Positions 29,590 through 33,925 of a DNA stretch of 64,000 nucleotides are shown here, piece by piece. The notes beneath the pieces were generated by a model that was given only the letters and a program-made list of their open reading frames with translations, made no database searches and was not told the DNA's origin. The stretch covers positions 1 through 64,000 of the forward strand of contig JAHQJS010000003.1 of NCBI GenBank assembly GCA_019057385.1. The letters run 5' to 3'. Each line of letters begins with the position of its first letter. Position 1 is the stretch's first letter. Made by a program: the position numbers and the translations under genes. Source of the DNA: Candidatus Borrarchaeum weybense (GTDB lineage Archaea; Asgardarchaeota; Sifarchaeia; Borrarchaeales; Borrarchaeaceae).

Positions 29590-29996
29590 TATTCTAAAAA
29601 CTTTGAATTACTTAATAGGAACTCTAATTTTTGTTTACGGTCAATTTTGATGTATAGCAAGTGAGATGAGACAAATAGGAATTTCAGAGATTCAGAAGAA
29701 AATTATTTATAATACAAAATCGGGGTGAATCATAGGTGATGAATTTAAAAGGATAATCAAAATATCAGTTAAGTTTCAAATTCAGTCGCTTGAAAAAGGA
29801 AATGTGAAAACTAATACACCCGAACTATTAATGAAACAATGGATAATGTCTGAAACATAAAAACGTTTTTTCACGCTTAGTATAATTTACTAAATGAGTA
29901 ATTGAATGCTTCATAAGTTAGGCACTTGTACTAGGCACTTGGGCACTTGAGTTTCGGGCATTGCGATCTCTGTGAGTATTTAGGGATCTAATTCAC

Positions 29997-31403
29997 TTGA
30001 GAAAGAGCGAGGATGAGAAGATATTGTGTGCCTCAAAAACGAGAAAAGAATATCGAATTAAAATAGTCGTTGCTGGAGACGGGGGAGTAGGCAAAACAAG
30101 CTTATTGAATCGATATGTTTCAGACACATTTTTAACAGCAATGAAGATGACTATTGGCACAGACTTCTTTTCTAAAGTTATGGAAAGAGATAATAGTGTA
30201 GTTAAACTTCAACTGTGGGATTTTGGTGGTGAAAAACGGTTTCGCTTCCTTCTTCCTGGTTATTGCAAGGGCGCCCGTGGCGTGTTATTGGCATTTGACC
30301 TGAATGATTTTACGACATTAATGAGTTTAGATGAATGGATCCAGATTGTTAAGGAAAACACAACAGATCCTAAAATACTTCTTGTGGGAACTAAAGTAGA
30401 TATCGCGGGAGGAGTCACGGAAGAGGAATTCATTAGAGATTTTTGTGAAAAGCATAATATACATGAATTCATCCCAACAAGCTCAAAAACTGGAGAAAAC
30501 GTGGATTTTGTCTTCCAAGAATTAGTTGATCGAATCCTCGCGCCTTTAATTCCTGAAATTCCTCTTGTACCTATTACTCCACCTGAGATCCTTGAACCTA
30601 CTACCCCTCTGGAAGCCCCCGAACCTATTACTCCACCTGAGATCCTTGAACCTACTACCCCTCTGGAAGCCCCCGAACCTATTACTCCACCTGAGATCCC
30701 CGAACCTATCGCTCCACCTGAAATCTCTAAGCCCATTATCCCACCTGAAATACCCGAACCTATCACTACTCCACCTGAGATCCCCGAACCTATCGCTCCA
30801 CCTGAGATACCTAAGCCCATTATCCCACCTGAAATACCCGAACCTATCACTACTCCACCTGAGATCCCCGAACCTATTATCCCATCTGAAGTCTCTGAAC
30901 CTACCCCTCCACCTGAGATACCTAAGCCTATTATCCCACCTAAGATCCCCGAACCCACCCCTCCACCTGTAATACCTGAACCTACTCCTCCACCCGAGAT
31001 CCCTGAGCCCATTACACCACGTGTAATTCCTGAACCTACCCCTCCACCTGAGATACCTAAGCCTATTATCCCACCTGAAATCCCCGAATCTATCCCTGTC
31101 CCAATTCTATCGGATATAGAATTTACCCTTGAACCTGGTGAAAACAAAGATTGGAAAATCAAACTTTATGTATTATCAAGAGGTGGGTTTGGTCTTCGTG
31201 CACTTAAATTTCTAAAGAATCAGTCTATTGAATTTGAGTATGTATTTGTAGACGAGTTAGACGAAAAGGTTGCAAATGAATTACGTGGAATATTGAAAGA
31301 GAAATATGGCCGACATGTTTCCTATCCTTTCCTTATTATTGATGACAAAAAGTGCTTAGTTGGTTTTGACGAAACTGAATACTATTCAATTTTTGGCAAG
31401 TAA
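29997..31403 (+). CDS. Rab/Ras-like small GTPase fused through a Pro-rich repeat linker to a glutaredoxin-like domain lacking CxxC
   Basis: G1 GDGGVGKT, G2 TIG, G3 WDFGG, G4 TKVD, G5 SSK; about 180-aa PEP repeats; C-terminal LYVLSRGGFGLRALKFL...VSYPFLII...VGFD. Confidence 0.88.
   Translation: MRKSEDEKILCASKTRKEYRIKIVVAGDGGVGKTSLLNRYVSDTFLTAMKMTIGTDFFSKVMERDNSVVKLQLWDFGGEKRFRFLLPGYCKGARGVLLAFDLNDFTTLMSLDEWIQIVKENTTDPKILLVGTKVDIAGGVTEEEFIRDFCEKHNIHEFIPTSSKTGENVDFVFQELVDRILAPLIPEIPLVPITPPEILEPTTPLEAPEPITPPEILEPTTPLEAPEPITPPEIPEPIAPPEISKPIIPPEIPEPITTPPEIPEPIAPPEIPKPIIPPEIPEPITTPPEIPEPIIPSEVSEPTPPPEIPKPIIPPKIPEPTPPPVIPEPTPPPEIPEPITPRVIPEPTPPPEIPKPIIPPEIPESIPVPILSDIEFTLEPGENKDWKIKLYVLSRGGFGLRALKFLKNQSIEFEYVFVDELDEKVANELRGILKEKYGRHVSYPFLIIDDKKCLVGFDETEYYSIFGK
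30570..31100 (+). repeat. Coding Pro/Glu/Ile-rich degenerate tandem repeats (about 27-bp period, with 54-bp and 84-bp higher-order duplications)
   Basis: PITPPEILEPTTPLEAPE x2; PEPIAPPEI(S/P)KPIIPPEIPEPITTPPEI x2. Confidence 0.9.
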
Positions 31404-31449: not shown

Positions 31450-31800
31450 ATGGTGAGTGTTTTGACTGTATCCCAAAAGGAAAAAAATATTGAAGATGCA
31501 AAACTATTTGCTAAAATGACTGCTAAACATCAAGGATGGGAGTTAAATCACGATAAAGAACTTAACGAGTTGCTCTTTGAAGGTCTAACTACTAATTGGA
31601 ATCGATATGGATATTTTGCCTGTCCTTGTCGACTTGCCGATGGAGTTAGAGAAGAAGATAAGGATATTATCTGCCCTTGTGAGTATGCTAAACCTGATCT
31701 TGAAGAATATGGGCATTGTTATTGCGGTTTATATTTGACAAAAGAGTTTTTTGCGTCTGGCAAGCAATCTAAATATATCCCAGATCGCCGCCCTGAATAA
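31450..31800 (+). CDS. Ferredoxin:thioredoxin reductase catalytic-subunit family protein
   Basis: CPCR, ICPC, CYCGLY motifs. Confidence 0.92.
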   Translation: MVSVLTVSQKEKNIEDAKLFAKMTAKHQGWELNHDKELNELLFEGLTTNWNRYGYFACPCRLADGVREEDKDIICPCEYAKPDLEEYGHCYCGLYLTKEFFASGKQSKYIPDRRPE

Positions 31801-31815
31801 GTCCCTTTTGTACGA

Positions 31816-32184
31816 TTACTTGTTTGCCATTGTAAATTCTTCGACTGTTGGAAATTCAAAAGCTGATGCAAAATAAGTAGTTACTAGCTCCTCAAGGATC
31901 TCGGAGTCGTAGCTCCCACACACTCTCAAAAAGTCGGGAAAAATAACTGTTGGGCAGGCCACGATATCATGTTTCTCAGCTACCTCAGGCGTTTTTAAAA
32001 CGTCTATTTTAATCATTTTTATTGGCAACATTTTCCTATCTATAACTTCCAAAAGACATTGTTCCATTTTAGGACAAGGGCCGCATAAGGGGGAGGTAAA
32101 AAAGAAAATCTCCAGAAATGAATCGTAGTTATTACTTGAATCATGATTATGGCTTTTGATTTTTTCTTCATGAATGTTAGACAT
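31816..32184 (-). CDS. Thioredoxin-like protein (CGPC)
   Basis: FFTSPLCGPC...IDVLKTPEVAEKHDIVACPT. Confidence 0.85.
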   Translation of the reverse strand: MSNIHEEKIKSHNHDSSNNYDSFLEIFFFTSPLCGPCPKMEQCLLEVIDRKMLPIKMIKIDVLKTPEVAEKHDIVACPTVIFPDFLRVCGSYDSEILEELVTTYFASAFEFPTVEEFTMANK

Positions 32185-32539
32185 GACTTACACCACCAAT
32201 AGAAGTCATAGATGATTGATGTTTAAATTCTGAAGATGAGTAAAGCTTTACCAACTCGTCTAGCTCTTCTTCACAATTTCCATAGATTTTCATAAAATTT
32301 CGGAAAATTAGTGTAGGACATGCTACTATATTATGTTCTTCCGCTGCCTCAGGAGCTCTTAAAACATCTATTTTTGTTACTTTTATAGGCAATTCTCTTT
32401 GCTCAATTGCCTTTAGAAGTCGCCTCTCTAGTTTAGGTTGATGACTAGTAGGCGAAGTGAAGAACAGAATTTCTAGATTCGGATCTTGATTATGATTTTC
32501 ATACTCTGCTAGATTGTTCGACATTTTTAACCCCACCAA
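32177..32539 (-). CDS. Thioredoxin/KaiB-like protein lacking CxxC (paralogue of the adjacent gene)
   Basis: FFTSPTSHQPKLE...IDVLRAPEAAEEHNIVACPTLIF. Confidence 0.78.
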   Translation of the reverse strand: MVGLKMSNNLAEYENHNQDPNLEILFFTSPTSHQPKLERRLLKAIEQRELPIKVTKIDVLRAPEAAEEHNIVACPTLIFRNFMKIYGNCEEELDELVKLYSSSEFKHQSSMTSIGGVSHV

Positions 32540-33152
32540 AACTCATTTCTCGGGCGATAACTCGCCGAATTAACTCTTTAAAGACAAAATCCACGTTTTT
32601 TCCTGTTTTGGAACTTGTTGGTATGTATTCGTCGATTTCGTTTTGTATACAAAACTCTTTAATAATTTCTTCATCCAAAAGATTTGTATTGTCTGCTTTC
32701 GTTCCAACAAGAATTGTTACGGGATTTTCGGTATTCCCCCTGATAAGTTGTAGCCATTCCTTAACACTTAGTAACGTGGAAAAATCTGATAGGTCAAAGG
32801 CCAATAACACGCCACTGGCGCCGATACAATAATCCGGCAAAATGAATCTAAATCGTGGCTCGCCTCCAAAATCCCATATTTGAATTTTTATTTTATGCTC
32901 CTTGAAATCACAGGCTTGACTGAAAAAGTCTGAACCAACTGTTAAACTCATGCTTTCAATAAAGTCATTTGAGATGTATCTGTTTAGTAAACTTGTTTTA
33001 CCTACTCCCCCGTCACCTGCGACAATTATTTTCATGCGATTATATTCCGTTTTCATTTTCGGACACTCTTCCAAAATAGTTTTCTCACCGTTTTCAATGC
33101 CAACGATGTTTAATGGGTTGTACAAAGACATTGTCGAAACTTTTTTCACCAC
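32499..33152 (-). CDS. Rab/Ras-like small GTPase
   Basis: GDGGVGKT, TVG, WDFGG, TKAD, SSKTG. Confidence 0.92.
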   Translation of the reverse strand: MVKKVSTMSLYNPLNIVGIENGEKTILEECPKMKTEYNRMKIIVAGDGGVGKTSLLNRYISNDFIESMSLTVGSDFFSQACDFKEHKIKIQIWDFGGEPRFRFILPDYCIGASGVLLAFDLSDFSTLLSVKEWLQLIRGNTENPVTILVGTKADNTNLLDEEIIKEFCIQNEIDEYIPTSSKTGKNVDFVFKELIRRVIAREMSFGGVKNVEQSSRV

Positions 33153-33291: not shown

Positions 33292-33633
33292 TTATGAAGC
33301 GAGGAAAAGTGTTGTAGCATCGGATGTCAAAAGAGCTTTCTCATTTCTTTGCATCAAATCGAGGAGCTTCGTCCTGTCAAGGACTCCTGACAAGAAAGCC
33401 TCTACACCAACGAAAATATCTGCGATTGCTGTCATAAATTGCGAAAACAGTTGATAATCACGCGGTAGTACTTGTTTCGCATCTACGACTTCCCAGAACC
33501 TGTAGATGTATTCTTTTAACGGATTTAAAAGGTTTTTAAGATATATATCTGCATATTTTCCGTCTTCCTTGAAACCAACTTCCACGATTTTTCCAAACAC
33601 GTTTTTAAGCACATCTTGTATATCCCATTCCAT
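33292..33633 (-). CDS. Hypothetical helical protein
   Basis: ATG 33633 after GGGGTGA SD; 113 aa. Confidence 0.65.
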   Translation of the reverse strand: MEWDIQDVLKNVFGKIVEVGFKEDGKYADIYLKNLLNPLKEYIYRFWEVVDAKQVLPRDYQLFSQFMTAIADIFVGVEAFLSGVLDRTKLLDLMQRNEKALLTSDATTLFLAS

Positions 33634-33925
33634 GCGCGTCACCCCAGCAAATTTTGATTTTTTGGTTGCCGCGATCGAAATTTTTTTGAAGAAAAAATTT
33701 TTTCATCGCGAAGCCAATCAAAAGAAGAAACGCATCAAACCTTGATAAATTCTGTCCCAATCTTTTGTTTTCTGTGCGGAGAAGATGCGTCTGCAATTCT
33801 TAACATTAATAGGTAATACGGTAATGTTCCCAAAATTGCATATTCATTTTACAAAATCACAAAAAGCCTATGACATGTTTATGAGTTTGGAAAAATTGAG
33901 TAAAAATCATAGAGCGAAAAAACAA

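Follow-up and report, generated by a model that had tools for sequence, protein, structure and literature searches.

A Rab-like small GTPase joined by a proline-rich linker to a cysteine-less glutaredoxin domain, encoded beside a ferredoxin:disulfide reductase gene in Candidatus Borrarchaeum weybense

Asgard archaea encode many Rab- and Ras-like GTPases, but to our knowledge almost no partners or inputs of these proteins are known. No C-terminal extension is present in the Asgard Rabs published to date, and the Asgard small GTPase fusions on record carry longin and roadblock domains (Tran et al. 2024, PMC10933270). Here we describe a gene of Candidatus Borrarchaeum weybense in which a Ras/Rab-like GTPase is fused, through an acidic proline-rich repeat linker, to a C-terminal glutaredoxin (Grx) fold that has lost both active-site cysteines. 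The gene lies at 30024..31403 on the forward strand of a window of 64,000 nucleotides (positions 1 to 64,000 of contig JAHQJS010000003.1) from a genome assembly of 4.18 Mb in 8 contigs (GCA_019057385.1), and all positions given below are those of this window. We call the Cys-less glutaredoxin-fold domain Grx*, a Cys-less thioredoxin (Trx) paralogue encoded nearby Trx*, and the ferredoxin:disulfide reductase encoded downstream FDR.

Like the fusion protein, eukaryotic Rabs have a G domain and, after it, an unstructured tail of variable sequence with a targeting element at its end. The tail of the fusion protein is 3–5 times longer, however, and ends in a folded domain rather than a prenylated cysteine, and its GTPase has glutamate in place of the catalytic glutamine and TKVD in place of NKxD. 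Asgard GTPases fused to longin or roadblock domains likewise have a candidate regulator or partner domain on the same chain, but the partner here has a thioredoxin/glutaredoxin fold, which is not listed in PMC10933270, and is joined by a long repeat spacer.

The redox half of the protein has relatives in which a small archaeal glutaredoxin-like protein is associated with a ferredoxin-dependent Fe-S reductase, namely the methanoredoxin and NrdH-like redoxin of Methanosarcina with FDR (Yenugudhati 2016 and Wei 2015, as cited in PMC7278568, PMC5704485, and PMC11846895). According to papers citing that work, FDR delivers electrons to class III ribonucleotide reductase (Wei et al. 2015, Biochemistry 54:7019, cited in PMC5704485 and PMC11846895). 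The Methanosarcina proteins are stand-alone CxxC redox enzymes, whereas Grx* is predicted to be incapable of thiol-disulfide exchange at that site. The route from FDR to the ribonucleotide reductase reportedly passes through the NrdH-like redoxin. A physical pairing of this kind of Grx with this kind of reductase is seen in natural Grx-FDR fusions, including Protein Data Bank (PDB) entry 7PWE from Desulfotalea psychrophila and two metagenomic proteins (P0013 and P0021) among the closest non-Borrarchaeum relatives of Grx*. These fusions share the Grx subfamily (template modelling score, TM, 0.73 for 7PWE) and the FDR class found here. In them the Grx still has its CxxC and forms one chain with the reductase, whereas in Borrarchaeum it is Cys-less and fused to a GTPase, with the reductase encoded by a separate gene.

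Thioredoxin folds without CxxC have been reused for protein binding in KaiB, the SasA N-domain, and phosducin/PhLP; phosducin takes part in G-protein signalling, and the partner of KaiB is a P-loop NTPase. The likeness of Grx* to these proteins would be one of fold only, with no sequence relationship, and unlike Grx* none of them is known to derive from the cognate substrate of a reductase or to be joined to a small GTPase. The component families are thus known, and redox-dead thioredoxin folds as binding modules are a known theme. Our literature search found no description of a fusion between a small GTPase and a pseudo-glutaredoxin, nor of a dead copy of an FDR substrate.

The three-part architecture was confirmed within a single unbroken open reading frame (29997..31403, 468 aa) that opens at 29997 and closes with a stop codon at 31401-31403. 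The true product is probably 459 aa, beginning M-C-A-S at TTG 30024, because all ten orthologues start at that position (with ATG, TTG, or GTG). The GTPase domain (30060..30539, residues 22–181) is followed by the linker (30546..31118, residues 184–374, 191 aa as assembled) and by Grx* (31119..31400). An earlier note, made from the letters alone, had described a Rab-like GTPase, a proline-rich tether, and a glutaredoxin with GGFG at its active site, and the reading frame together with Pfam, PDB, and structure matches agreed with this description. The cysteine directly after the start codon (30024-30035) is invariant in the fused GTPase, all orthologues reading M-C-A-S; it is not conserved in a second GTPase of the locus (GTPase2) and is absent from the stand-alone paralogue.

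The GTPase domain matched Pfam Ras (PF00071) with an E-value of 5.9e-36 (123.9 bits against a cut-off of 21.6) and scored 89.6 for TIGR00231 (cut-off 42.5). Its top PDB matches were Rab18, Rab12, Sec4, and Rab1 (E 1e-31 to 1e-27). Aligned to Rab18 and Rab12, the domain retains the G1 P-loop GxxxxGK[ST] as GDGGVGKT and the G3 DxxG as D-F-G-G, and its G5 motif is SSK. The catalytic glutamine is replaced by glutamate (WDFGGEK aligned with WDTAGQE), G4 reads TKVD instead of NKxD, and the prenylatable C-terminal cysteine that defines eukaryotic Rabs is absent, since the protein ends in Grx* with ...SIFGK. The glutamate substitution (WDFGGE) is common to the fused GTPase, GTPase2 (32553-33062), a paralogue in the second species, G004 (contig G004:C40), and further paralogues of the genus, and TKxD is common to both GTPases of the locus and further genus paralogues. 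These shared changes suggest altered or partner-dependent GTP hydrolysis.

The final ~95 residues matched archaeal glutaredoxin structures, namely methanoredoxin (5cax, E 1.6e-8), the closest solved structure by both sequence and fold, and 3nzn (E 8.9e-8). An AlphaFold2 (AF2) model built on a 49-row alignment had a predicted local distance difference test score (pLDDT) of 95.9 and the order beta-alpha-beta-alpha-beta-beta-alpha. Foldseek searches with this model returned 5cax, 3nzn, 3ic4, and the Grx domain of 7pwe at TM 0.71–0.78 (TM 0.74–0.78 and E 2e-7 for 5cax). The assignment to the glutaredoxin fold rests on these PDB and structure matches because the Pfam Glutaredoxin profile (PF00462) scored 17.2 bits, below its cut-off of 22.9; TIGR02196 likewise fell short (20.9 against 88.55).

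Within this fold, the active site has neither CxxC nor CxxS. G-G-F-G, encoded by GGT GGG TTT GGT at 31182..31193 as the earlier note had read it, aligns with C-V-W-C of 5cax and replaces the ancestral C-G-F-C still found in the genome's own stand-alone paralogues and other homologues. The surrounding features are retained: the cis-Pro loop reads S-Y-P, aligned with S-F-P of 5cax and invariant in the fused clade, the G-F-D-E loop is present, and a lone conserved cysteine lies in beta-4. With neither cysteine at the site, disulfide reductase activity is not expected. The structural matches also uphold the earlier view that both cysteines were lost while the fold was kept, and they answer the concern that the domain might not have a thioredoxin fold.

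The linker contains repeats, so we considered whether the fusion could be an artefact, either a chimera assembled across the repeats or a glutaredoxin remnant decaying neutrally. Public short-read (Logan) contigs break inside the repeat and none spans the whole linker, which would favour a chimera. However, such breaks are expected in a repeat. G004, a second species, encodes all three parts in one uninterrupted orthologue of 431 aa, and a search of 5.8 billion proteins found nine further full-length fusions of 376–454 aa in ENA, JGI, and NCBI assemblies. S-R-G-G-F-G is invariant in ten full-length orthologues while linker length varies, and these are independent reading frames. Where assemblies are broken, the flanks run on in frame into the repeat: in one genome (G001), one contig ends inside the repeat after the GTPase and another starts inside the repeat before the Grx domain, and the second half is found likewise in a further genome (G003). 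In one run (X1) the repeat is tiled by exact unitigs, and another (X7) has a form shorter by 329 nt; none of the 21 public runs was listed as an RNA data set. An assembly chimera, which the earlier note had named as a way for its proposal to fail, is therefore excluded.

Decay is also at odds with the substitution pattern. The ratio of nonsynonymous to synonymous substitution rates (dN/dS) of Grx* was 0.11–0.25 by the Nei-Gojobori method (six species pairs, four species), with dS up to 1.0. This is the same range as for FDR, Trx, Trx*, GTPase2, and the small helical protein hyp116 (0.06–0.40), and the fused GTPase domain gave 0.09–0.17. The glycine codons vary synonymously between species (GGT or GGC for the first, and GGG, GGA, or GGT for the middle glycine), so the motif has stayed invariant at the protein level despite silent change. 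These ratios indicate that Grx* is under purifying selection and is not decaying, which settles the dN/dS question raised by the earlier note, and we consider an artefact or a decaying remnant extremely improbable. A more distant relative, known from a 65%-identical fragment (P0011) preceded by a proline-rich linker, reads G-A-F-G. Glycine at both positions in both lineages suggests selection for the absence of a side chain, because serine was also one mutational step from cysteine. Taken over the genomes compared, this is a real gene that selection maintains, and it is confined to Borrarchaeum and close relatives.

The linker is of the PEIPEP(T/I)PP type and in the source genome consists of 40% proline, 17% glutamate, and 20% isoleucine, with a net charge of -27 and a longest proline run of 3. 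Across the ten orthologues it measures 108–191 aa, with 36–47% proline, 15–20% glutamate, a net charge of -13 to -37, and proline runs never above 4. Tandem Repeats Finder reported periods of 27 and 81 nt across 30569-31094. The 54-bp and 84-bp duplications that the earlier note had seen were recovered as near-exact tandem copies, two at 30569..30676 (86 nt matching at period 54) and two at 30723..30877 (71 nt matching at period 84), each with at most 2 mismatches and each pointing to a recent duplication. A minus-strand frame of 300 aa (30260..31162, with G-I-S-G-G repeats) is not a gene but the reverse-complement mirror of the proline-rich repeat.

This composition, rich in proline and glutamate, charged, and without a proline run above 4, fits an extended, non-globular spacer. 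It could instead be read as the active part of the protein, a multivalent ligand for profilin-like or SH3-like binders, with Grx* doing no more than capping its end stably. In favour of this, every orthologue has a long, proline-rich linker, and other Asgard Rab-like GTPases have long proline- and glutamate-rich tails with unrelated small end domains. Its longest proline runs (3–4) are short for classical poly-proline ligands, however, and linker length and repeat make-up vary freely between close relatives, above a minimum of ~108 residues, while Grx* is strongly conserved. We regard the ligand explanation as quite improbable. The tails of those other GTPases are rich in Pro, Glu, and Ser and are capped by small unrelated domains (L050:1266-2420, L051:628-2295, and L052:404-2458), for example a helical domain (G015), a zinc ribbon (G033), or a coiled coil (G004). 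A tail-plus-end-domain layout seems common among Asgard Rab-like GTPases and is reminiscent of the hypervariable tail and anchor of Rabs.

The gene that follows the fusion after a gap of 46 nt (31450..31800, forward strand) encodes a protein of the catalytic-subunit family of ferredoxin:thioredoxin reductase (FTR). It matched PF02943 (FeThRed_B) with an E-value of 7.6e-25 (87.5 bits against a cut-off of 22) and is the sole PF02943 match in the source genome. All six cysteines of its CPC...CPC...CYC pattern (C58, C60, C75, C77, C90, and C92) are invariant, and its dN/dS was 0.09–0.25. The earlier note had called this gene the FTR partner; a reductase gene of this family does follow directly, but it is closer to the FDR class than to plant-type FTR. 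Its best PDB matches were 4tpu (1.9e-27) and 7pwe (3.5e-27), the plant-type and cyanobacterial enzymes reaching only 1e-5 to 1e-8, and it has C-Y-C, as in 4tpu and 7pwe, in place of the plant-type/cyanobacterial C-H-C. The fusion entry 7PWE matches both the Grx* model and the neighbouring gene.

Gene order in other genomes links Grx* to this reductase family by descent. Among 400 Asgard genomes, the fused Cys-less form was found in this genus only, and the other best matches were stand-alone proteins of ~100 aa. At 15 of 15 other Asgard loci, a stand-alone Grx with S-T-C-G-F-C (once C-G-H-C) lies directly upstream of an FTR-family gene on the same strand, so the nearest stand-alone homologues keep the cysteines, as the earlier note had anticipated. 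In those lineages this glutaredoxin is the operon partner, and presumably the substrate, of an FTR/FDR-type [4Fe-4S] disulfide reductase. A member of the sister family (G005) has the grx(CGFC)-ftr pair with no GTPase nearby. A search without a word index returned 76 matches in 1.84 billion representative proteins, and outside the fused clade all of these keep CxxC, except two short fragments that lack the site region. These comparisons show Grx* to descend, on homology and gene order, from the FDR-linked Grx subfamily, and the earlier proposal that a GTPase gene captured a grx-ftr pair is borne out for the Grx member by the 15 loci and the sister family.

The source genome also has extra redox-active Grx copies, three tandem stand-alone paralogues (CGFC, CAHC, and CGFC) on contig C7, whereas most other Asgard genomes have one match. 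The simplest history would be that an FDR-partner Grx was duplicated, that the FDR-adjacent copy became fused to a GTPase gene, and that its chemistry was then lost. We found no intermediate, either fused with CxxC or unfused and Cys-less, among the Asgard genomes and the protein-set matches. In a tree of the Asgard Grx clade, Grx* is monophyletic (support 100/98) on a stem of 0.31 and forms a polytomy with two genus paralogues.

Given this ancestry, Grx* may be a redox-dead docking module that holds FDR on a long leash, which is our best reading and one to which we give about an even chance. That Grx* is a pseudo-enzyme binding module under selection is a much firmer proposition. Under the docking reading, Grx* would no longer be a substrate but would bind non-covalently, placing the face that once held its active site against the CPC site of FDR. 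It might tether the reductase to the GTPase at long reach, or it might vie with redox-active Grx and Trx proteins for FDR; in both cases a thiol system driven by ferredoxin would be tied to a GTPase switch. The tether and its terminal docking domain would then work like the hypervariable tail and anchor of a Rab, with a protein-binding domain replacing the lipid.

Structure prediction of the complex was consistent with docking. FDR modelled with its [4Fe-4S] cluster and Grx* gave an interface score (ipSAE) of 0.61, and the best of three controls scored 0.01. Of 80 solved complexes 58 attain this mark, as do 2 of 110 mismatched pairs. The runs agreed in at least 89% of contacts, and partner pLDDT was at least 88. 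In the models, FDR residues 59–65 (the CPC loop) face the R-G-G-F, S-Y cis-Pro, and V-G-F-D-E loops of Grx*, and this predicted interface is the canonical reductase-substrate geometry. The suggestion of an FTR-docking module in the earlier note thus gains a modelled complex well separated from its controls, but the pass may reflect memory of solved complexes.

Several points weigh against docking to FDR. Complexes of FTR with Trx have been solved, as has 7PWE, and the alignment supplied to the model consisted mostly of redox-active homologues; because of both, the complex result is best taken as likeness and not as binding. Within the fused clade, the predicted interface residues showed no significant excess of conservation over the other positions (14/20 versus 31/65 invariant, Fisher p = 0.12). 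The tree allows Grx* to come from the FDR-adjacent copy or from a paralogue, and only synteny favours the former. In one relative, the fusion and FDR genes are separated by a TnpB/IS605 element, so tight co-transcription of the two is not required. Finally, WDFGGE GTPases have degenerate Trx-fold genes as neighbours at three places, one of which shows no FDR gene in the 3.3-kb stretch read, and a direct partnership between GTPase and Trx-fold protein would fit this adjacency at least as well.

The conserved face of Grx* also admits another partner. In the Trx/Grx family, one face of the fold recognises both the reductase and the clients, so Grx* could be an adaptor for the former clients of the glutaredoxin, bringing the GTPase to disulfide-containing targets with no chemistry. 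Conservation of that shared face would be expected in such an adaptor. No client is known, however, nothing in the locus points to one, and contacts between a Grx and its clients are usually weak without a mixed disulfide, so that we consider the adaptor improbable.

The surrounding genes bear on the choice between FDR and the GTPase as the partner of Grx*. A block conserved in six independent contigs runs in the order MoxR-type AAA+ gene, VWA gene, hyp116, GTPase2, one or two Trx* genes, and Trx(CGPC), and the fusion and FDR genes converge on Trx(CGPC) from the other side. On the minus strand, the small thioredoxin (31816..32184, MJ0307 type, CGPC) matched Pfam Thioredoxin (4.7e-8) and TIGR00411 and is conserved in the genus. 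Trx* (32177..32539, minus strand, probable start 32524) has T-S-H-Q-P in place of C-G-P-C, is ~51% identical to the CGPC Trx, has a dN/dS of 0.06–0.22, and overlaps the end of the GTPase2 gene. GTPase2 (32499..33152, minus strand) matched Pfam Ras with an E-value of 1.7e-34, is ~59% identical to the fused GTPase, and has WDFGGE. There are thus two GTPase paralogues in the locus, and each goes with a Trx-fold module that is redox-dead and stems from a likely substrate of FDR. As read from the genes, this arrangement fits docking; GTPase2 and its overlapping Trx* gene would be an unfused version of the same design. Both copies of the tandem thioredoxin pair (31816-32539, minus strand) are under purifying selection, and G001 has two Cys-less copies.

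The same neighbourhood can be explained if the degenerate Trx-fold domain is a regulator or effector of this GTPase subfamily, so that Grx* binds its own or the sister GTPase and adjacency to FDR merely reflects where the recruited gene came from. Three links within the genus agree with this: the fusion itself, the overlap of GTPase2 and Trx*, and a third cluster in G004 (contig G004:C40), made up of a gene resembling hyp116, one for a Trx-like protein (S-S-C-C), and one for a WDFGGE GTPase, with no FDR gene in the 3.3 kb read. In another Asgard family (f7), moreover, the best Trx homologue lies within ~1 kb of a GTPase gene in four of the five genomes with a match. On the other hand, Grx* comes from the FDR-partner Grx subfamily while the other pairs come from the Trx family, Grx* keeps the canonical reductase-facing surface, and a spacer of 108–191 residues would be unneeded for binding in cis. 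A GTPase partner is a serious alternative, if on balance somewhat unlikely, and it is not exclusive of docking to FDR.

Returning to docking, a bolder extension would make the locus a redox-to-GTPase signalling device in which two Rab-like GTPases are coupled, one through fusion and the other through gene overlap, to dead mimics of FDR substrates, with the occupancy of FDR, and hence the redox state of the ferredoxin and thiol pool, read by, or controlled through, the switches. The tail and docking domain of such a device would be a prokaryotic counterpart of the hypervariable tail and anchor of Rabs. We hold this whole extension to be doubtful.

A further possible component is hyp116 (33292..33642, minus strand, upstream of GTPase2; also L057:1495-1845), a genus-specific helical protein of 113–116 aa. 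It had no Pfam match and no Atlas match and was found in the genus only. Its AF2 model is a five-helix bundle, for which Foldseek returned only generic four-helix-bundle matches (best E 0.06). A paralogue with 48% identity adjoins the Trx-like gene and WDFGGE GTPase of G004:C40, and because of this recurrence at a second G004 locus hyp116 is a candidate GTPase partner.

Other features of these loci were noted in passing. A stretch of ~400 nt of non-coding DNA 5' of the fusion gene (29590-29996) is unusually conserved among species whose coding dS is ~1.2. Its invariant blocks include a TATA-like AAAATTATTTATAATAC, and GGCACTTG occurs three times at ~29921-29949 in the source genome. There was no Rfam match to this region and no covariation support for a structure among three sequences, and it may be a promoter or a long leader with regulator sites. 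The element between the fusion and FDR genes mentioned above is an OrfB_IS605/TnpB gene on a JGI contig (P0010, JGI 3300042731) that is otherwise syntenic. The FDR gene of G001 (L024:730-1437, contig G001:C88) has a divergent N-terminus, and a second FDR-like fragment of 24 aa lies ~330 nt upstream, which may be a partial duplication or a frameshift. In G002, a genome of the same genus that is 77% complete, the fusion locus was not found with the queries used. Its sole PF02943 match is a distinct FTR-like protein (CPC...CPC...CWC), encoded next to a Grx with CPWC in a cluster (L058:3-901, contig G002:C158) that also includes a Rieske-like protein.

For the biology of these archaea, the gene names a testable set of partners for an Asgard GTPase, namely a pseudo-glutaredoxin, an FDR-type Fe-S reductase, a Cys-less thioredoxin, and a small helical protein, all of them small, soluble, and amenable to expression. 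It also offers a clean natural example of an enzyme's cognate substrate becoming, after duplication, a putative pseudo-enzyme docking module, with both cysteines changed to glycine and long held that way. If docking to FDR is wrong, what is left is a lineage-restricted domain fusion of modest general interest. If it is true, the fusion would link anaerobic ferredoxin and thiol metabolism to a eukaryote-like switch and would provide a tail-plus-anchor layout for a Rab-like GTPase outside eukaryotes.

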